DNA of 38,659 nucleotides from Myxococcota bacterium (lineage in GTDB: Bacteria; Myxococcota_A; Polyangia; Polyangiales; Sandaracinaceae). Position numbers and translations under genes: made by a program. This document shows, in pieces, positions 23,462-38,463 of this stretch. The stretch spans positions 1 through 38,659 of the forward strand of contig JAYZQJ010000148.1 of assembly GCA_036149055.1 (NCBI GenBank). Reading direction: 5' to 3'. Positions within the stretch are counted from its first letter, which is position 1. The number at the start of each line of letters is the position of its first letter. The notes beneath the pieces are model-generated. The model had not been told where the DNA came from and ran no database searches. It saw nothing but the letters and a program-made list of their open reading frames with translations.

Positions 23462-23469
23462 GATCAGAG

Positions 23470-23540
23470 CTCCGGCGGCTGGATTCGAACCAACATAGAC
23501 GGATCCAAAGTCCGCAGTCCTACCATTGGACGACGCCGGA
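23470..23540 (-). tRNA. tRNA-Gln(TTG), canonical
   Basis: Acceptor TCCGGCG/CGCCGGA + G73; D arm GTCC-AATGGTA-GGAC; anticodon loop CT-TTG-GA; T loop TTCGAAT. Confidence 0.95.
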
Positions 23541-23587
23541 AACGCTGCGGAGGATAGTACACGCGCCGGTCGCGTCGAGCGGCCTCA

Positions 23588-23659
23588 TGCCTCCCGCCAG
23601 GTTCGAACTGGCTTCTCCCGGTTACGACGCGGGTGCGTTACCGATCACGCTCGAGAGGC
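23588..23659 (-). tRNA. tRNA-Thr(CGT), atypical (last array member, downstream of the Ro60 gene)
   Basis: GCCTCTC/GGGAGGC acceptor; GCGT-GATCGGTA-ACGC; anticodon loop GT-CGT-AA with a C.C mismatch at 31-39; GCCAG-TTCGAAC-CTGGC. Confidence 0.75.
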
Positions 23660-23757
23660 ACGGTCGCCGCGACCGCTCGCCAACGTCGCGAGCGGCCGCG
23701 GGGCCCGGAGCTCCGAGGAGCTCTATTTGGGTGGATGGGTGAGTGGTGGAAGAAGAT

Positions 23758-25302
23758 CTACTGGCCGCGGATGACGTCCACCCAGTGCTGCGCGCCGTCG
23801 GCGCCCTGGGCGAACGCCGCGACCACGTCGAACACCTGGTCGGAGAAGCCCCCGACGTTCAGGATGTCCGGCGAGTCCGGCGCCTGAGAGTGGCCGTACG
23901 GCTGCACGTCCACGCAGACCAGACGCGCCTTCGGGTTCCGGCTCTTCAGCTGGTTCCACTGACGCATGGTCTCCGTGGCGCCGTGACGACGTGCATCGAC
24001 CCACGACTGGTTGTCGCTGACGATCACCACCAGGTCGACCTTCCGCTGCTCCGCGTTCAGCTTCGCGAGCGGGGCCGAGACGTTGGTGCCGCCGCCTCCG
24101 ATGGAGGCGAGCTTCCGCGCGTTGGTCATCACGGTGTCCCGCGGCTCGAGCTCGACCGGCACGCAGCCGTGCTCGAAGGGGATGACCCCCGCCCGCGGGT
24201 TGTGCCGCACGAGCGCCGCCGCGAACAGCGCCGCGACGTCGACGCACTTCACCGCGCTCGTCGCGCCCTGCCGCCAGCCGGTGACCGGCGACTGCATCGA
24301 GCCGGAGACGTCCGGGCAGACGAACACGTGCCCGTCGATCCGCGGCACGTTCGCGATCGCGTGCTCCATCGCGTCGTGCAGCGCGCCCCGCACCTGCGCC
24401 GGGACCTTCGTCGCGCTGACGTAGGCCATCATGAGCTGGTACGGGAAGGCGCGCGCCTTCCGGACGAGCGACGGGTCCGAGAGCCGCGCCGCGATCCGCT
24501 CGGTCATCCCGTCCACCTCGAACACGCCGTGGCGCTGGAAGGTGTTCAGGTTCATCCGCGTCATCTGCCACGACGCGGACTCCGCGATCGCCGCCCACTC
24601 GGCCCGGCCGAGGCCGAGCGCGGTGAGCATCTGGAACGGCACGCTCGGCACCGCGTTGGACCGGTCACGCTTGTAGGCCTCGAAGGCCTTCACGAGCTCC
24701 GGCAGCGCGTCCCCGTCGTGCGCCTTGCCCAGGAGGTACCCGTAGAGCGCCCGCCGCGAGGCGGAGGCCGGCTTCGGGTGGACCATCTTGAGCACGTCGG
24801 CGAGCGACGGAGCGTTCCCGACCGAGCCCTTGAAGAGGTACTCGTCGGACCGCGAGCCGAGCCACCGGAGGATCTCCTTCTTCGGCCGCGTCCCGAGAGA
24901 CTTCCGGCCGACGGCGCCGCTCCGCATGATCTGCACGAAGGTCCGGAGCATCTTCACGTTGTCGACGACCTTCGGGAAGGCCGCCCCGAAGAGCTCGGGA
25001 TCGCGCACGGAGAGCACCGCGAGCAGGAGCGCCGGCATGTCCTTCATGTGCCCACGCTGGCGCGCGTACACCGCGCACTTGGCGAGGAACTCCGGGTCGA
25101 CCGCGAACGCGAGCTTCAGCACGACGTCGAGCTGCGTCTGCGCCGACGCGTAGAAGGTGCCGTTCAGGCAACCGGTGGCCGCGTACTGCCCGAGCGCGTG
25201 CTCCGGACCGAACGCGTAGGCCGGCCCACCCGCCTCGTTGACGAGATCCGGCTTGGGCAGGAGCTTGCCGACGAACGACGCGAACAGGTTCTTGTTTGCC
25301 AT
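23758..25302 (-). CDS. rsr: Ro60/TROVE-domain RNA-binding protein with vWA domain (Rsr)
   Basis: N-terminal NEAGGPAY..L.QYAATGCLNGTFY; MTRMNLNTFQRHG; FPYQLMMAY; MIDAS motif CPDVSGSM, GGGTN, VSDNQSW, VGGFSDQVF. ATG at 25302 follows a GGAGGTG RBS (514 aa). Confidence 0.95.
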   Translation of the reverse strand: MANKNLFASFVGKLLPKPDLVNEAGGPAYAFGPEHALGQYAATGCLNGTFYASAQTQLDVVLKLAFAVDPEFLAKCAVYARQRGHMKDMPALLLAVLSVRDPELFGAAFPKVVDNVKMLRTFVQIMRSGAVGRKSLGTRPKKEILRWLGSRSDEYLFKGSVGNAPSLADVLKMVHPKPASASRRALYGYLLGKAHDGDALPELVKAFEAYKRDRSNAVPSVPFQMLTALGLGRAEWAAIAESASWQMTRMNLNTFQRHGVFEVDGMTERIAARLSDPSLVRKARAFPYQLMMAYVSATKVPAQVRGALHDAMEHAIANVPRIDGHVFVCPDVSGSMQSPVTGWRQGATSAVKCVDVAALFAAALVRHNPRAGVIPFEHGCVPVELEPRDTVMTNARKLASIGGGGTNVSAPLAKLNAEQRKVDLVVIVSDNQSWVDARRHGATETMRQWNQLKSRNPKARLVCVDVQPYGHSQAPDSPDILNVGGFSDQVFDVVAAFAQGADGAQHWVDVIRGQ

Positions 25303-25398
25303 GATGCACCTCCGTGTGGAGTGAAAGGCGCCGCGAGGGCGCGTGATAAGTCGCGTTCGCTGGGCTCCTCCCCGAGAGGAGCCGGGGTGCGAACGCGA

Positions 25399-25469
25399 AG
25401 CGACCGGTCGGAGTCGAACCGACACTGCGGACCTGGCAAGCCCGAGTCCTACCGTTGGACCACGGTCGC
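25399..25469 (-). tRNA. tRNA-Gly(GCC)
   Basis: GCGACCG/CGGTCGC + U73; GTCC-AACGGTA-GGAC; TT-GCC-AG; GTCGG-TTCGACT-CCGAC. Confidence 0.9.
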
Positions 25470-25473
25470 GAGA

Positions 25474-25544
25474 CGCCGCGTACGGAAATCGAATCCGTCT
25501 CACTCGGGAGACAACCGAGCTGCATCCCAGATGCACAACGCGGC
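25474..25544 (-). tRNA. tRNA-Asp(GTC), atypical
   Basis: GCCGCGT/ACGCGGC + G73; TGCA-TCTGGGA-TGCA; CTCGG-TT-GTC-TC-CCGAG; ACGGA-TTCGATT-TCCGT. Confidence 0.85.
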
Positions 25545-25550
25545 AGAAGA

Positions 25551-25583
25551 TGGAGCGCATCGGAGTCGAACCGATCACGCCCT
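25551..25583 (-). ncRNA. tRNA-Ala-like minihelix or tRNA remnant (acceptor + T arm only)
   Basis: AGGGCGT-G-ATCGG-TTCGACT-CCGAT-GCGCTCC-A gives G3.U70 and A73, with no D or anticodon arm. Confidence 0.55.
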
Positions 25584-25590
25584 TCGCTGA

Positions 25591-25661
25591 AGCGATCGAC
25601 GGGAGTTGCACCCGTGTCTCCGGCATGGGAGGCCGGCGTCCTGCTGCTGGACGACGATCGC
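25591..25661 (-). tRNA. tRNA-Gly(CCC), atypical elbow
   Basis: GCGATCG/CGATCGC + U73; GTCC-AGCAGCA-GGAC; CCGGC-CT-CCC-AT-GCCGG; ACGGG-TGCAACT-CCCGT. Confidence 0.82.
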
Positions 25662-25696
25662 GAAGGCGAGCCCCTACGCGAGAGGCATTCGCGGCA

Positions 25697-25781
25697 TGGA
25701 GAGCGGAAGAGTCGAACTCCACACCCCGGAGGGTGCGCACCCGCTAGCAACGGGGCTCGATCCCGGACCGATTCACTCTCC
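25697..25781 (-). tRNA. tRNA-Ser(GCT), long variable arm
   Basis: GGAGAGT/GCTCTCC acceptor; loop TT-GCT-AG; variable stem CACCC/GGGTG; T loop TTCGACT. Confidence 0.8.
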
Positions 25782-25786
25782 TGAAG

Positions 25787-25869
25787 CGGAAGGAGGAGGT
25801 CACGCTCCCCACACCTGTCGGTGCGCACCGTTTTCGAGACGGGCTCGGCCCTCGGCCAATTCTCCTTCC
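25787..25869 (-). tRNA. tRNA-Ser(CGA), atypical T loop
   Basis: GGAAGGA/TCCTTCC + G73; loop CT-CGA-AA; variable arm CACC-GACA-GGTG; T loop AGCGTGA. Confidence 0.75.
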
Positions 25870-25878
25870 GGGAGAAGA

Positions 25879-25997
25879 GCAGCGACGAGTGGTGCGAAGA
25901 CGTGTTCCCGCGGTCCTGCCCTTGGACGACCGCCGAGGCGGGCCGGAGTCGAACCGGCATCTGCGGGGTGAGTTGTAGTCTTCGCGGCATTCGCTGC
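25879..25997 (-). ncRNA. Y RNA (YrlA-like, permuted tRNA-like domain), copy 4
   Basis: Terminal stem GCAGCGA-ATGCC-GCGAAGAC / GTCTTCGC-ACCACTCG-TCGCTGC encloses a T arm (GCCGG-TTCGACT-CCGGC), a loop-closed acceptor (CCGC-CTCG-GCGG) and then a D arm (GTCC-AAGGGCA-GGAC). Confidence 0.85.
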
Positions 25998-26035
25998 GCC
26001 ATTCGTGCGAAACGCGCTCGCTCCCTCGAGAGCGA

Positions 26036-26122
26036 CGGAAGATGGAGGTCACGCTCCCCACCCCTGGAACCAGGGGCGCGCCGGCTTCCAACCGGGCTCG
26101 GCCCTCGGCCGATTCACCTTCC
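26036..26122 (-). tRNA. tRNA-Ser(GGA), atypical T loop
   Basis: GGAAGGT/ATCTTCC + G73; loop TT-GGA-AG; variable stem CCCCTG/CAGGGG; T loop AGCGTGA; clear paralog of the Ser(CGA) gene. Confidence 0.75.
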
Positions 26123-26183
26123 AGCTCGCGCGTGGGGCGAGGGGCGACCCCGAGGCCGACCCCTCACCCGCCACGCGCCGCCC

Positions 26184-26705
26184 TCAGCTCGGGCCGGTCG
26201 TCCACCAGACCCAGTCCTTCCACGGGTCCGGCAGGCTGCGACCGACGCCCAGCTTGGGCAGCCCGGCCGGGAGCGCCTTGGGGCGCACCGGCTGGCTCAG
26301 CAGCTTCATGCCGGCCTGCTCGGGCGTCCGGTTGCCCTTTCGCCCGTTGCAGTCGCGGCACGCGCTGACGATGTTCTCCCAGGACGTGCGGCCCCCCTGA
26401 GAGCGGGGCTTCACGTGGTCGAACGTCAGCTCCCGCGCCGGCAGCTGCTCGCCGCAGTACTGGCAACGGAAGTCGTCGCGGGTGAGCACGTTCACGCGGG
26501 AGAAGCGAACCTTCGGCTCGCGGTGCTTGATCGCGCGGGTCAGCCGAACGACCGCGGGCTTCGGCAGCGCCGTGCTCACCGAGCGGATGAGCTCGTCATA
26601 GGTCTCGACGACCTCCACCTTCCCCGTGAAGGACATCAGGATGGCCTTCTGCCAGCCGACGATCCGGTGTGGCAAGTAGCCTTGGGTCAGGACCAACGTG
26701 TCCAT
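26184..26705 (-). CDS. HNH endonuclease (McrA-like, zinc-binding)
   Basis: FSRVNVLTRDDFRCQYCG..LTFDHVKPRSQGGRTSWENIVSACRDCNGRKG; ATG at 26705 (173 aa). Confidence 0.93.
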   Translation of the reverse strand: MDTLVLTQGYLPHRIVGWQKAILMSFTGKVEVVETYDELIRSVSTALPKPAVVRLTRAIKHREPKVRFSRVNVLTRDDFRCQYCGEQLPARELTFDHVKPRSQGGRTSWENIVSACRDCNGRKGNRTPEQAGMKLLSQPVRPKALPAGLPKLGVGRSLPDPWKDWVWWTTGPS

Positions 26706-26795
26706 GGGAGCACCTTCTTTCGGGGTGATGCGGGCGGAGGGAGGCGCTCGGCGCCGAACGCGACGAGCGGTGACGGAGGGGAGCGAGGGTTCTGC

Positions 26796-26870
26796 GGCGA
26801 ACGGGGAGATTCGAACTCCCACTGAGCGACTTCTGAGGCCGCTGCCTCTGCCGAGTTGGGCTACGTTCGC
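26796..26870 (-). tRNA. tRNA-Leu(CAG) with short variable loop
   Basis: GCGAACG/CGTTCGC acceptor; GCGGC-CT-CAG-AA-GTCGC; 5-nt variable loop TCAGT; GGGAG-TTCGAAT-CTCCC. Confidence 0.85.
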
Positions 26871-27057
26871 GAAACTTTCGTGGCGGGAGGTGGTCGGCTG
26901 CCCGGGGCATCCAGGCGAAGCGGGTGGAGCCTTCGCCCACCGGGCAGCCGACCGACCTTCACGCTCGAGTCCCACCGGACCGTGGCCACCCACCGGTCGC
27001 CCGCGAGGCTCGCGCTCGCGGTCGCCCCTCGTCCGAGGAGCGCGGCGTGGTCGGGGA

Positions 27058-27129
27058 CGCTCTCGCCTGGACTCGAACCAGGAACGCGGGCTTCGGAGGC
27101 CCGAGTGATCTCCGTTTCACTACGAAAGC
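27058..27129 (-). tRNA. tRNA-Arg(CCG)
   Basis: GCTTTCG/CGAGAGC + G73; GTGA-AACGGAGA-TCAC; CGGGC-CT-CCG-AA-GCCCG; CCTGG-TTCGAGT-CCAGG. Confidence 0.9.
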
Positions 27130-27199
27130 ATGTCCCCGTCGTCCGGCGGTGCGTCCAGCGCGGGGGGATGCGCCAGCGGCACGTTCGATCCGACGGAGA

Positions 27200-27271
27200 T
27201 CGGAGAGGGAGGAATCGAACCTCCGTGGTCTGGTTCCCGAAACCAGTGCGTGGCCACTACGCTACACTCCG
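27200..27271 (-). tRNA. tRNA-Pro(CGG)
   Basis: CGGAGTG/CTCTCCG + A73; GCGT-AGTGGCC-ACGC; CTGGT-TT-CGG-GA-ACCAG; GGAGG-TTCGATT-CCTCC. Confidence 0.88.
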
Positions 27272-27511
27272 CTTGCTGGAGGGCCTGAACGCAGGCCCTC
27301 CCCCCATTGGGCAAAGCGCCAATGGGGCCCCCCTCCCGACTCCGTCGGAGCTTCGCGCTTCGCGCTCGCTCCGCGTCCCCAGCGGCGGGGCGCTGGGGCC
27401 CTGCGGCTCGCGCTAGGCGCTTCGCGCCTCGCTGGCCGCCTTTCTGTTGTCGCCGACTTGGTTGTCGTGGGCCGCGCTCGGCGCTTTGCGCTTCGCTGGC
27501 CACCTTTCTGT
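27272..27511. repeat. Palindromic dispersed repeat copy B with an internal 38-bp duplication
   Basis: Inverted homolog of 12-223; 27410-27447 and 27474-27511 match at 34/38 nt. Confidence 0.65.
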
Positions 27512-27538
27512 CGTGGGGGACTCCGGGCCGGGCGGGAG

Positions 27539-27611
27539 CACCCTCGGCAGGAGTCGAACCTGCATCCTCCCGATTCGTAGTCGGGTGCTCATCCATTCGA
27601 GCTTCGAGGGT
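27539..27611 (-). tRNA. tRNA-Arg(ACG)
   Basis: ACCCTCG/CGAGGGT + G73; GCTC-GAATGGAT-GAGC; CCCGA-CT-ACG-AA-TCGGG; GCAGG-TTCGACT-CCTGC. Confidence 0.9.
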
Positions 27612-27615
27612 AGAG

Positions 27616-27684
27616 AGTGCCGAGAGGGAGTCGCGCCCTCGCTCGCCGGGTTGCAGCCAGCGACGCTCGCTCGAGCTTCGGCAC
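27616..27684 (-). tRNA. tRNA-Cys(GCA)-like, reduced D loop
   Basis: GTGCCGA/TCGGCAC + U73 (Cys discriminator); GCTC-GAGC-GAGC; loop CT-GCA-AC; GAGGG-CGCGACT-CCCTC. Confidence 0.7.
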
Positions 27685-27688
27685 GTAG

Positions 27689-27766
27689 TGGTCGACGAGG
27701 GAGCCGTGAGGAGTGCCCGGTCGGGCGTCGATTGACAGTCGATGTACTCACGGCGGCATTCGACCA
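27689..27766 (-). ncRNA. Short Y RNA without tRNA-like domain, copy 3
   Basis: TGGTCGA-ATGCC-GCCGTGAG-TACA...CTCACGGC-TCCCTCG-TCGACCA: same terminal helix motif as the other copies, with two small internal hairpins (78 nt). Confidence 0.72.
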
Positions 27767-27767
27767 G

Positions 27768-27840
27768 TGATCGAGGCGGGAGACGATCCCGCGACCTCCG
27801 GCGTGTCGGGCCGGCGCTCTGCCTGCTGAGCTACTCGATC
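27768..27840 (-). tRNA. tRNA-Val(GAC), atypical
   Basis: GATCGAG/CTCGATC + A73; GCTC-AGCAGGCA-GAGC; CCGGC-CC-GAC-AC-GCCGG (C33); GCGGG-ATCGTCT-CCCGC. Confidence 0.82.
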
Positions 27841-27864
27841 GTGTCTCCAGCGGAGACGAGAGAG

Positions 27865-27972
27865 GCAGCGACGAGGGGTGCGAAGACGCAACGCTTCTCC
27901 GCCCGCAGGATGGACGGAATCGGAGTCGAACCAATGTAAAGCAACCATGTAGTCTTCACGGGCATTCGCTGC
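27865..27972 (-). ncRNA. Y RNA with T arm and closed acceptor stem but no D arm, copy 2
   Basis: GCAGCGA-ATGCCC-GTGAAGAC-TACA..ATTGG-TTCGACT-CCGAT-TCCGTCC(loop)GGGCGGA..GTCTTCGC-ACCCCTCG-TCGCTGC. Confidence 0.8.
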
Positions 27973-27980
27973 GGAGAGGA

Positions 27981-28109
27981 GATGGCGACGAGGGGTGCGA
28001 GGACATTGCTCTAGCCACTGAGCTACGTCCCGATGACTCGAGACGGCCGGATTCGAACCGGCGACCCTTCGTGTTGCAGACGATGTAGTCCTCACGGGCA
28101 TTCGCCATC
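27981..28109 (-). ncRNA. Y RNA (YrlA-like, permuted tRNA-like domain), copy 1
   Basis: GATGGCGA-ATGCCC-GTGAGGAC-TACA..GCCGG-TTCGAAT-CCGGC-CGTCTCGA(GTCA)TCGGGACG-TA-GCTC-AGTGGCTA-GAGC..GTCCTCGC-ACCCCTCG-TCGCCATC. Confidence 0.88.
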
Positions 28110-28111
28110 AG

Positions 28112-28186
28112 GTGGACCGACGGGACTCGCACCCGCTCATGCCTGGGTCACGGCCAGGCGCCTCGACGACTTCGGCTTCGGTCCAC
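28112..28186 (-). tRNA. tRNA-His(GTG), atypical T loop
   Basis: 8-bp acceptor GTGGACCG/CGGTCCAC (G-1:C73 His determinant); CCTGG-CC-GTG-AC-CCAGG; GCGGG-TGCGAGT-CCCGT. Confidence 0.83.
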
Positions 28187-28190
28187 ACAG

Positions 28191-28261
28191 CGCCTCGAGC
28201 TGGACTCGCACCAGCACCTCCCGGATTTCACCCGGGCGCTCGACTGTCGAGCTGTCGAGGC
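28191..28261 (-). tRNA. tRNA-Phe(GAA), atypical
   Basis: GCCTCGA/TCGAGGC; GCTC-GACAGTC-GAGC; CCCGG-GT-GAA-AT-CCGGG; GCTGG-TGCGAGT-CCAGC. Confidence 0.8.
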
Positions 28262-28266
28262 AGGAG

Positions 28267-28339
28267 CGCCGCCGGAAGGATTCGAACCTTCGACCCCCCG
28301 GTTAACAGCCGGGTGCTCTACCGTTGAAGCTACGGCGGC
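28267..28339 (-). tRNA. tRNA-Asn(GTT)
   Basis: GCCGCCG/CGGCGGC + G73; GCTT-CAACGGTA-GAGC; CCCGG-CT-GTT-AA-CCGGG; GAAGG-TTCGAAT-CCTTC. Confidence 0.93.
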
Positions 28340-28384
28340 GTTCGGACCCCGGGGCGCCTGCCACGCGCCCCGGAGGAGACCTGA

Positions 28385-28413
28385 TTTTCAAGGAGCGGCC
28401 CTCGATGGAGGGC
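28385..28413 (-). promoter_or_regulatory. boxB-like hairpin followed by boxA-like antitermination sequence
   Basis: GCCCTC-CATC-GAGGGC hairpin, then GCTCCTTGAAAA, which resembles the rrn boxA consensus (GCTCTTT[A/G]A[C/A]A). Confidence 0.55.
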
Positions 28414-28415
28414 GC

Positions 28416-28486
28416 AGCCGCGCCGAGGAGTCGCACCTCGACCTCCCGGTTCAGAGCCGGACGTCCTGCTGTTGGACCAGCGCGGC
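28416..28486 (-). tRNA. tRNA-Gln(CTG), atypical
   Basis: GCCGCGC/GCGCGGC; GTCC-AACAGCA-GGAC; TCCGG-CT-CTG-AA-CCGGG; CGAGG-TGCGACT-CCTCG. Confidence 0.8.
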
Positions 28487-28490
28487 GTGA

Positions 28491-28562
28491 TGAAGCGCCA
28501 GGGAGTTGCACCCCGATCGACCGGGTAAGAACCGGCTGCTCTGGCTGTTGAGCTAGCGCTCC
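28491..28562 (-). tRNA. tRNA-Lys(CTT), atypical elbow (first array member)
   Basis: GGAGCGC/GCGCTTC + A73; GCTC-AACAGCCA-GAGC; GCCGG-TT-CTT-AC-CCGGT; CGGGG-TGCAACT-CCCTG. Confidence 0.83.
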
Positions 28563-28599
28563 AGAAACGAAAAAAGCCGTCTGCGTGCAGGCAGACGGC
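28563..28599 (-). terminator. Intrinsic terminator (attenuator 2) immediately upstream of the first tRNA
   Basis: GCCGTCTGC-CTGCAC-GCAGACGGC-TTTTTTCGTTTCT; a competing GCAGACGG strand lies at 28635-28628. Confidence 0.85.
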
Positions 28600-28624
28600 C
28601 GGAAGAAGTCGCATTGATTCGACT

Positions 28625-28819
28625 TCACCGTCTGCGATGAATCTCCTGACCGTAGGTATCTGTCTGCGAAGAGATCGGATTGAGATGGGGTTCCGGACAT
28701 CCGCTCGCCAGGCGCAGGTCACCCGTCGAGCGAGCGAACGAGGCCGCCGCGCGTGAGGGGGTCGCCGGACGCCATCGCGGCCTGATGGCCGCCAAGGGCA
28801 TGAGGGGGGTGCGCTGCAT
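28625..28819 (-). CDS. Putative leader peptide 2 (64 aa)
   Basis: Ends CGC AGA CGG TGA exactly on the antiterminator strand; codon-diverse; no visible Shine-Dalgarno. Confidence 0.5.
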   Translation of the reverse strand: MQRTPLMPLAAIRPRWRPATPSRAAASFARSTGDLRLASGCPEPHLNPISSQTDTYGQEIHRRR

Positions 28820-28886
28820 GGGAGGGGAGACGTTCGAGGGGGCGAGAAGTTCCGTCGAGCTGGGATGAAGGGAGGGGAGGGGCGCG

Positions 28887-28926
28887 AGAAACGAAAAAGG
28901 CCGCCTCGGGGAGTCCCGGGGCGGCC
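28887..28926 (-). terminator. Intrinsic terminator (attenuator 1)
   Basis: GGCCGCCCCGGG-ACTC-CCCGAGGCGGCC-TTTTTCGTTTCT; same tail as attenuator 2; a competing GGGGCG strand lies at 28958-28953. Confidence 0.85.
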
Positions 28927-28957
28927 CAAATACGCGAAAAGCGTATGGATCTCGCCC

Positions 28958-29176
28958 CTATGGGATGCGCAGTTCCTGACGAAGGAAGCTCGGGAGCTTC
29001 CCGAACGACGAGCCGCGCTCGTCCGCGCAACGCAGCGGTCCGTGACCGCCGCACTGGCTATCGATCATGTCGATGTCGATGCCGCAGAGACCGAAGGTGG
29101 TCTCCCGGCTCACACCGTACCGGTTCAGCGCTCTGGCTGACCGGTCGCCCTTCGGCGTCTGATGCGTCCACGACAT
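28958..29176 (-). CDS. Putative leader peptide 1 (72 aa, near-leaderless)
   Basis: ATG 9 nt after the -10 box; all 20 amino acids by codon 33; TAG stop overlaps the antiterminator strand. Confidence 0.62.
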   Translation of the reverse strand: MSWTHQTPKGDRSARALNRYGVSRETTFGLCGIDIDMIDSQCGGHGPLRCADERGSSFGKLPSFLRQELRIP

Positions 29177-29185
29177 GATGTGAAG

Positions 29186-29214
29186 GTCTTAACCCAGGTC
29201 CAGACCCGTGTCAA
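29186..29214 (-). promoter_or_regulatory. Putative sigma70-type promoter of the tRNA/Y RNA/Ro60 operon
   Basis: TTGACA (29214-29209)-17 nt-TAAGAC (29191-29186), preceded by a T-rich tract in otherwise very GC-rich DNA. Confidence 0.65.

Positions 29215-36351: not shown

Positions 36352-38463
<2,112 letters not shown>

Follow-up and report, generated by a model that had tools for sequence, protein, structure and literature searches.

The closest described counterpart of the leader reported here is the whiB7/wblC attenuator of Actinobacteria, which has a long, residue-rich upstream open reading frame (uORF) of variable length and sequence, according to the available portions of the reports (PMC10274678, PMC11550727, 10.1101/2025.10.10.681568). 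Full translation of this uORF favors a Rho-independent terminator and stalling favors an antiterminator, making it a general translation-stress sensor; as described, a single such module controls a transcription-factor gene that is subject to positive feedback (PMC10274678). The attenuators of ARE-ABCF genes (vmlR, lmo0919/vgaL, msrD, lmrC, are5sc, and tiaA) also combine a uORF with a terminator/antiterminator pair and respond to ribosome-targeting antibiotics; as described, their uORFs encode 3-9 aa, stalling at the start codon is the inducing event, and one switch precedes a resistance gene (PMC12421871). Classical trp/his/leu attenuators are described as following the 1-2-3-4 helix logic, in which the ribosome position decides, with short leaders rich in one amino acid and a single module (PMC10274678). 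Two independent decisions between termination and read-through, with a steeper or AND-like output, are described for tandem 'pseudo-cooperative' riboswitches and for T-box + ppGpp tandems, whose sensors are aptamers or T-boxes (PMC9481103).

Long tRNA arrays occur in many phyla, and the one published control found in the available text is a cyanobacterial promoter/repressor system (PMC8421152, PMC10272220). The cryptic trn L-array of Anabaena PCC 7120 is described as a long, non-housekeeping array with a link to HNH and RNA repair, and for such arrays in Anabaena, induction by chloramphenicol and an association with HNH and rtcB genes have been described (PMC8421152). Its described control consists of promoter-covering repeats and a DNA-binding repressor (TrcR, PMC10272220). 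The available text of PMC8421152 does not contain the string 'attenuat', nor does that of PMC9481103 contain the words 'uORF' or 'leader peptide'. Within the portions of the literature covered by our searches, no description was found of the present element, of tandem uORF attenuators, or of a Shine-Dalgarno (SD) sequence before a leader stop codon.

The window analyzed in this study is the whole 38,659-nt stretch (about 70% GC) from a Myxococcota genome of 9.9 Mb, the gene content of which likewise points to a myxobacterium. The leader is located on the minus strand between a chorismate-binding gene and a tRNA array (from 28563), and its features are as follows.

29254, minus strand: end of the chorismate-binding (pabB/trpE-like) gene upstream of the leader, PF00425
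29186..29214, minus strand: predicted sigma70-type promoter TTGACA-17-TAAGAC, directly after the pabB/trpE-like gene
28958..29176, minus strand: uORF1, 72 aa with all 20 amino acids, ending Ile-Pro-TAG, near-leaderless start
28974..28977, minus strand: SD-like AGGA ahead of the uORF1 stop, weak in the host genome (-4.3 kcal/mol), GGAGG in many relatives
28930..28964, minus strand: predicted antiterminator-1 5' strand around the stop (CCCA-TAG-GGGCG) with the enclosed hairpin 28946-28930, from folding and lineage arm covariation
28887..28926, minus strand: intrinsic terminator 1 with a U-rich tail, -23.7 kcal/mol, conserved core in the alignment
28820..28886, minus strand: C-rich, G-poor spacer, 57% C and 13% G, 33-115 nt in relatives
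28625..28819, minus strand: uORF2, 64 aa, ending His-Arg-Arg-Arg-TGA, the finding under study
28643..28647, minus strand: SD-like AGGAG, 6 nt ahead of CGC-AGA in uORF2
28605..28635, minus strand: predicted antiterminator-2 5' strand GCAGACGG (28635-28628) with the enclosed hairpin 28626-28605
28563..28600, minus strand: intrinsic terminator 2, with covariation, its tail adjoining tRNA-Lys
28385..28393, minus strand: boxA-like motif CCTTGAAAA after tRNA-Gln

We consider it likely that the element ending at the tRNA array is the second of two uORF-type transcription attenuators placed under one promoter (29214), and the tRNA/RNA-repair block behind both switches is probably on only during trouble in protein synthesis. 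The promoter at 29214 (TTGACA-17-TAAGAC) was not picked up by a consensus promoter scan. The uORF1 and uORF2 peptides had no Pfam match, and an Rfam scan of the leader for riboswitch, T-box, or leader families gave no match at gathering score.

The likeness to whiB7/wblC is one of mechanism, and no sequence homology is claimed. As in whiB7-type leaders, the uORF end overlaps the antiterminator (9 of 10 module-2 leaders and 21 module-1 leaders) and an intrinsic terminator with covariation lies upstream of the controlled genes. However, tRNAs, HNH, and Ro60 are found downstream instead of a whiB7/wblC gene, and the myxobacterial leader has two modules in series, directly before tRNAs, Y RNAs, and RNA-repair genes. 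In addition, the available text of the whiB7/wblC descriptions makes no mention of an SD-like motif before the stop (PMC10274678, PMC11550727, 10.1101/2025.10.10.681568). Compared with tandem riboswitches, the sensors here would be translated ORFs, and compared with the Anabaena array, control in the host would be exerted by leader attenuators. What is new here is that two modules stand in tandem and that an SD-like motif lies just before the uORF stop.

The block downstream of the leader, along the whole of which co-transcription is expected, contains the following features.

23469..28562, minus strand: tRNA array, Y-RNA-like RNAs, HNH gene, and Ro60/TROVE gene
28108-27979, 27972-27862, and 25997-25876, minus strand: three YrlA-like (Y RNA) copies, RF02553 E 3.5e-10, 1.8e-3, and 1.3e-11, all below the RF02553 gathering score of 69 bits
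26184..26705, minus strand: HNH nuclease gene within the array, PF14279 and PF01844
23758..25302, minus strand: Ro60/TROVE gene, PF25045 and PF05731

ARAGORN called 14 tRNA genes within 5.1 kb, and there are further, weaker candidates such as His and Cys; together with the HNH gene and Ro60, this makes the block an array of the L-array type. The array includes tRNA-Arg(ACG) and tRNA-Arg(CCG), and second copies of Lys-CTT, Gln-CTG, Phe-GAA, Val-GAC, and Leu-CAG are present elsewhere in the genome. The YrlA-like RNAs, a divergent set of myxobacterial Y RNAs, are interspersed among the tRNAs upstream of Ro60. At about 27764 on the minus strand lies one more, shorter repeat with YrlA-like ends. 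Weak tRNA-like matches at 25697-25782 (minus strand; tRNA-Sec model, 31 of 47 bits) and further sub-threshold matches at 28038-28096 and 27911-28030 (minus strand) suggest additional degenerate tRNAs in the array. In genome G010, an ORF interrupts the array after tRNA-Gln (L003:1909 onward), and we take this ORF to resemble a transposase. An EF-G family gene (36352-38463, plus strand) was also found 7 kb from the leader on the opposite strand.

The preliminary description of this DNA had presented uORF2 as a leader that uses all six arginine codons. The ORF itself is as described, i.e., 64 aa at 28819-28625 on the minus strand with 18 residue types, no Lys or Val, 10 Arg residues covering all six codons, and a CGC-AGA-CGG-TGA end. 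Nevertheless, the use of six Arg codons is at chance level (P=0.13, dinucleotide shuffles) and occurs in two of nine orthologous ORFs, and the 18 residue types are unremarkable (P=0.18), with no excess residue diversity over the nine ORFs combined (P=0.30). A sensor of arginine or tRNA-Arg would fit the six codons and the terminal RRR, the 10 Arg in 64 residues, the two final codons, which are Arg in 10 of 10 genomes with AGA or AGG always penultimate, and the two tRNA-Arg genes of the array. However, AGA and CGG in uORF2 are confined to codons 63-64 on the antiterminator strand; stalling there would cover the antiterminator and favor termination over read-through, leaving the emphasis on Arg unsupported. 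The sole conserved Arg run sits on this strand, RRR is also spelled by the terminator-complementary sequence, and uORF2 of G022 has one Arg outside the terminal run. An Arg-specific sensor is therefore highly improbable, and we return to the reading of uORF2 as part of a second attenuator.

The structural features named in the preliminary description were likewise all found in the sequence. The strand GCAGACGG at 28635-28628 is indeed complementary to CCGTCTGC at 28598-28591 in the terminator 5' arm, the enclosed hairpin GAAGTCG (28626)/CGACTTC (28611) is present, and the terminator-2 tail abuts tRNA-Lys, which begins at 28563/28562. The tail TTTTTCGTTTCT, reported as identical in both terminators, is present at 28898 and 28574, and this 12-nt sequence occurs in the 9.9-Mb genome only at these two terminators; nevertheless, no other class of terminator tail is as common in the host genome as the one formed by the first 9 nt of TTTTTCGTTTCT (7 of 50 script-called terminators), and in the sister genome G001 the two tails differ. 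Likewise, GTCAGGA is found in both leaders (28980 and 28650) but is not kept in orthologues, in which the conserved part is the AGGA/GGAG core, and with 975 copies genome-wide it was rejected as a meaningful shared 7-mer. The two modules have the same architecture in layout, although their sequence types differ (TAG-GCGG vs RRR-TGA). The arrangement in series has good comparative backing in the retention of both modules in 10 genomes and in the two-module leaders of two other families.

DNA and pattern searches recovered this leader, following the same upstream gene, from 10 members of the family, including the host. Nine of these 10 orthologous leaders had an ATG ORF in frame to the antiterminator TGA, compared with the 2.5 that shuffling of the spacer would yield (P about 2e-5, which overstates the case in that the genomes are related). 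In the tenth genome (G014), an ATG ORF in the same frame has its stop 5 codons earlier. The uORF2s encode 13-87 aa of unrelated sequence, and the DNA identity between close pairs is 50-60%. Terminator 2 was 99% paired with 3 compensatory pairs, which none of 500 shuffles reached. For antiterminator 2, 93.8% of cells were paired over the 10 genomes, with no compensatory pair and with one pair mismatched in 3 of 10 genomes; pair counts for the module-2 middle hairpin are unreliable, as alignment gaps shift the register. A model of this module (R2) matched 6 training genomes and one other (G083) among 151 genomes, the latter being a single module-1-type leader, and a pattern scan of contigs returned at least 119 loci, among them one with the terminator, identical in sequence to a known locus. 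The motif TTCAAAC recurs in the module-2 middle-hairpin loop or just ahead of the first tRNA in several genera (L006:1484-1513, L010, L011, L050, L072, and L083).

These data bear on the possibility that module 1 is the sole translation sensor and module 2 a leaky, unregulated terminator or processing boundary, with its ORF a by-product of a GC-rich, stop-poor spacer. Such a view gains from the chance of 13-33% (shuffles) that a single genome would have such an in-frame ORF, from the lack of an SD and of excess residue diversity in uORF2, from the antiterminator 2 without a compensatory pair, and from the many relatives that carry module 1 alone. It is nonetheless unlikely given the frame conservation in nine of 10 genomes and the constant place of the stop within the strand complementary to the terminator arm, and the second modules of families f18 and f31 also have an ATG ORF ending at the switch. 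A second translation-dependent attenuator thus remains the preferred reading.

When the RNA was truncated ahead of the terminator 3' arm, folding placed the 5' arm in the hold of the stop-region strand, with medians of 0.81 for module 2 and 0.87 for module 1. Masking of the stop region lowered this hold to 0.32 and 0.11, respectively, the module-1 rows G005 and G034 of this test being mislocated by the script. The module-2 hold exceeded shuffles in 7 of 10 genomes (five or fewer of 100 shuffles). In module 1, shuffled upstream RNA also bound the GC-rich arm (median 0.67 vs 0.84 observed), and one of 21 leaders exceeded nearly all shuffles. Lineage arm covariation is better evidence than shuffles for the module-1 antiterminator, as GA-CCGCC terminator arms went together with GCGG-TC antiterminators at 5 of 6 such loci. 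For full-length RNA with the ribosome absent, every one of the 10 module-2 rows gave a terminator probability of about 1.0, as did most module-1 rows. Since the terminator wins at equilibrium, read-through would need kinetic trapping of the earlier helix, and this is the main weakness of the model.

The equilibrium result could also be met by a helper factor, i.e., a trans-acting RNA-binding antiterminator or NusG paralogue that sets the switches, or the terminated leaders might serve mainly as small RNAs, the ORFs being secondary in either case. RcsR1 is an attenuator-derived small RNA, and module 1 weakly resembles the Rfam family RcsR1 (E 0.038, 25.4 of 60 bits). Against this, the region upstream of the last codons is not conserved, whereas the frame, the stop position, and the SD-like motif are, and we regard a leading role of such factors or small RNAs as very unlikely compared with ribosome-governed attenuation.

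Module 1 was characterized with 21 seed leaders, which came from 19 genomes. Some were identified through DNA similarity, others because they adjoin Ro60 or tRNA arrays, or in a scan of the host genome for the promoter-ORF-terminator order; G026, missed by the promoter filter, was left out of the seed statistics. In all of the seed leaders, a TTGAC-TA promoter is followed by a start close by, and a uORF, a hairpin, and a terminator of the GGCCGCC type are present. The TTGAC-17/19-TA pattern, which doubled as a filter for finding seed leaders, was followed by a downstream ATG/GTG in all 21, at a distance of 8-13 nt in 18. Their uORF1s encode 22-116 aa of unrelated sequence; all 20 residues occur in 11 of 21, and residue diversity exceeds shuffles at P<0.05 in 11 of 21, in line with the residue-rich whiB7 uORF (PMC10274678). 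With a model of module 1 (R1), matches were obtained in 32 of 151 genomes at the level of the order, in 8 of 151 at that of the class, and in 4 of 151 at that of the phylum, under strict filters that lose weak matches, so that non-matching genomes are not to be counted as absences. Examination of 29 R1 matches gave 22 leaders, 2 unclear cases, and 5 ordinary gene-end terminators; the matches in G271 and G387 were rejected as ordinary terminators. Six of seven new class-level matches were leaders. Among the 22 leaders, 14 precede tRNA genes, 4 precede Hen1-Pnkp, kinase-Thg1, HNH, or HIT genes, and the remaining 4 have unclear targets. The Hen1/Pnkp/Thg1 neighbors tie the leader family to RNA repair. 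Single modules were seen before Hen1 + Pnkp and before AAA_33 kinase + Thg1 (L249 in G026, L247 in G004, and L263 in G037), with kinase and Thg1 fused in G037, where the leader is doubtful. One of the seed leaders is a second copy in the host genome, with a single module.

G000:C74:43031-42605, minus strand: locus L061, with TTGACA-17-TAAGAC, ATG at +9, a 22-aa uORF, and a terminator

This copy precedes an extra tRNA-Tyr, a tRNA-Trp, and a VanW-like gene; tRNA-Tyr and tRNA-Trp were not called by ARAGORN in the main array.

Many relatives carry module 1 alone, and two-module leaders ahead of tRNA genes were also identified in G148, G114, G122, and G160 (family f18) and in G188 (family f31). In these tandems, an ATG ORF ends at each switch and the second modules are of the TAG type, in contrast to the RRR-TGA module of the host. 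In total, 15 tandem loci were found in 15 genomes of three families. The sister genera of the f18/f31 tandems have one module, and these results suggest that the tandem may have been gained repeatedly. In several tandems, the U tract of the first terminator is very weak, as it also is in some single modules, and the second terminator is U-richer (L004, L007, L258, L254, and L259); the two gates may differ in leakiness. Genus g7 had no attenuator at L009, L014, L015 (before tRNA-Tyr), L076, L077, or L081 (Y-RNA-like/Ro60), and R1 matched none of its 7 genomes. Its arrays and Ro60 loci are directly preceded by CGTCAGG, followed after about 16 nt by another conserved patch, possibly an alternative sigma promoter or a repressor site exerting another control on the same regulon.

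An SD-like motif before the uORF stop was enriched in module 1. An anti-SD duplex of -6 kcal/mol or lower, 5-19 nt before the stop, was found in 13 of 21 seed uORF1s (-9 or lower in 10 of 21), compared with 8% at -6 kcal/mol or lower among 1289 windows taken elsewhere in these ORFs, and with 16% (-6 or lower) and 5.4% (-9 or lower) of gene ends (n=4221). The 16S 3' end carries the canonical anti-SD in three relatives. A purine motif was present in 42 of 52 ORFs, most often 7-8 nt ahead of the stop. Because model R1 spanned that region, the leaders it retrieved are biased in favor of the motif. In G148, G114, and G122, the first modules were identified by adjacency, and each had a value of -9.5. 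The GGAG/GGAGG sequences of the 52 ORFs were in the Glu frame in 20, the Gly frame in 12, and the third frame in 3, and a peptide motif with Glu near the end was rejected because the motif is spread over all three frames. The stop was TAG in 47 of 52 ORFs, compared with 713 of 4221 genes. The motif is weaker in module 2 (-6 kcal/mol or lower in 3 of 9 ORFs within the tested window), although by inspection four genomes have GGAG or GAGGTG 6 nt ahead of the module-2 Arg run. The second codon of this run is AGA or AGG, which are rare in the host genome, AGA being its rarest Arg codon (0.43 per 1000). The spacing would put the last sense codons in the P site, and in this way the pre-stop SD-like motif may keep the ribosome parked on the switch, over the antiterminator.

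The preliminary description had added the caveat that no SD precedes 28819. This is correct (duplex +0.1 kcal/mol), although it is a weak objection, as 155 of 405 likely gene starts in the host genome (38%) are without an SD, with an average of 42% C. The spacer at 28820..28886 is probably an open, SD-less loading site for uORF2. The same description offered a Rho-loading site as the alternative use of the spacer, in which case module 2 would act mainly by Rho-dependent termination when uORF2 is untranslated, and the two modules would have opposite signs, giving a band-pass rather than an AND-like response. The composition of the spacer (C exceeds G in 8 of 9 leaders) and the position of the boxA-like motif only after the leader accord with Rho. 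However, the spacer is just 33-45 nt in G017, G022, and G018, A-rich bases lie just ahead of the second ATG in three f18 tandems, C-rich SD-less starts are common in the host genome, and a covarying intrinsic terminator is present. Rho loading is thus the less likely use of the spacer, and a mainly Rho-dependent module 2 is quite unlikely next to a second uORF attenuator.

The CCTTGAAAA motif, which we take to be a boxA, lies 800 nt or less past terminator 1 in 13 of 21 leaders, compared with 24 sites genome-wide. Four rRNA spacers from three relatives were also found to contain it, with a single occurrence per spacer. A conserved downstream TTGA(A/C)AA was rejected as a promoter, as it has no -10 by inspection and matches the rRNA-spacer motif. 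A promoter bypassing the terminators had been proposed as a check on the model; the pattern TTG(A/C)(C/A)-17/19-TA was absent from terminator 1 to the first tRNA in 10 of 10 leaders.

Expression data came from four of 15 listed RNA-library runs, as contigs only. Contigs from two studies start at 29162-29169, near the predicted start, which is a weak hint. Contig X2 (27900-29162) spans both terminators and fits either read-through or library DNA. The X6 piece ends at 28901 and the X5 piece at 28573 (ends that come from one sample), and both lack cover over much of 28170-28570; the break in X1 at 28570 reflects a branch from which a contig continues, and the promoter is uncovered in all four runs. 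We did not count the X5, X6, and X1 ends as evidence of termination, because they come from one sample or a branch and holes in cover prove nothing.

According to the proposed mechanism, the polymerase would start at about 29180 and a ribosome would translate uORF1. The last codons and the stop overlap the antiterminator strand, so that a ribosome reaching the uORF1 stop would mask this strand; terminator 1 would then form and transcription would end. If the ribosome stalls early or fails to load, owing to ribosome-targeting drugs, shortage of any charged tRNA, or damage to tRNA or rRNA, the antiterminator would fold first and allow read-through. The same test would be repeated at uORF2, loaded without an SD from the C-rich spacer, so that the spare tRNAs, Y RNAs, HNH, and Ro60 would be transcribed only once both modules had been passed. 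The SD-like motif, with start-codon-like spacing but placed before the last sense codons, together with slow ends (Pro/Thr-UAG in module 1 and the rare AGA in module 2), probably holds the ribosome until the terminator wins. The boxA would then shield the untranslated array from Rho. With two modules, the response would be multiplicative, with a tighter off-state and a steeper rise. An AND-like or noise-suppressing gate, as the preliminary description had put it, is a reasonable inference from two attenuators in series, and tandem riboswitches supply an analogy in the available text (PMC9481103).

More tentatively, and with rather less confidence than in the tandem itself, we propose that myxobacteria run a translation/RNA-repair regulon, comprising spare tRNA arrays, Y RNA/Ro60, Hen1-Pnkp, and Thg1, by modular uORF attenuators in which a pre-stop SD parks the ribosome and one or two modules are stacked, the stacking having more than one origin. 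If true, this would be a new attenuator design principle, together with a series of one- and two-module leaders bearing on noise suppression; close relatives with one vs two modules form a natural series for testing whether stacking sharpens the response, as has been argued for tandem riboswitches (PMC9481103). For attenuation, the ribosome must remain at the switch until the polymerase has transcribed the terminator, and the SD-like motif is an easily mutated candidate for setting this dwell time. The modules could also be used as broad reporters of translation inhibition. For the organisms themselves, the myxobacterial leaders would represent a second, RNA-only solution for the control of tRNA arrays, and the proposed mechanism predicts when the arrays, Y RNA/Ro60, and RNA-repair genes of myxobacteria would be expressed.
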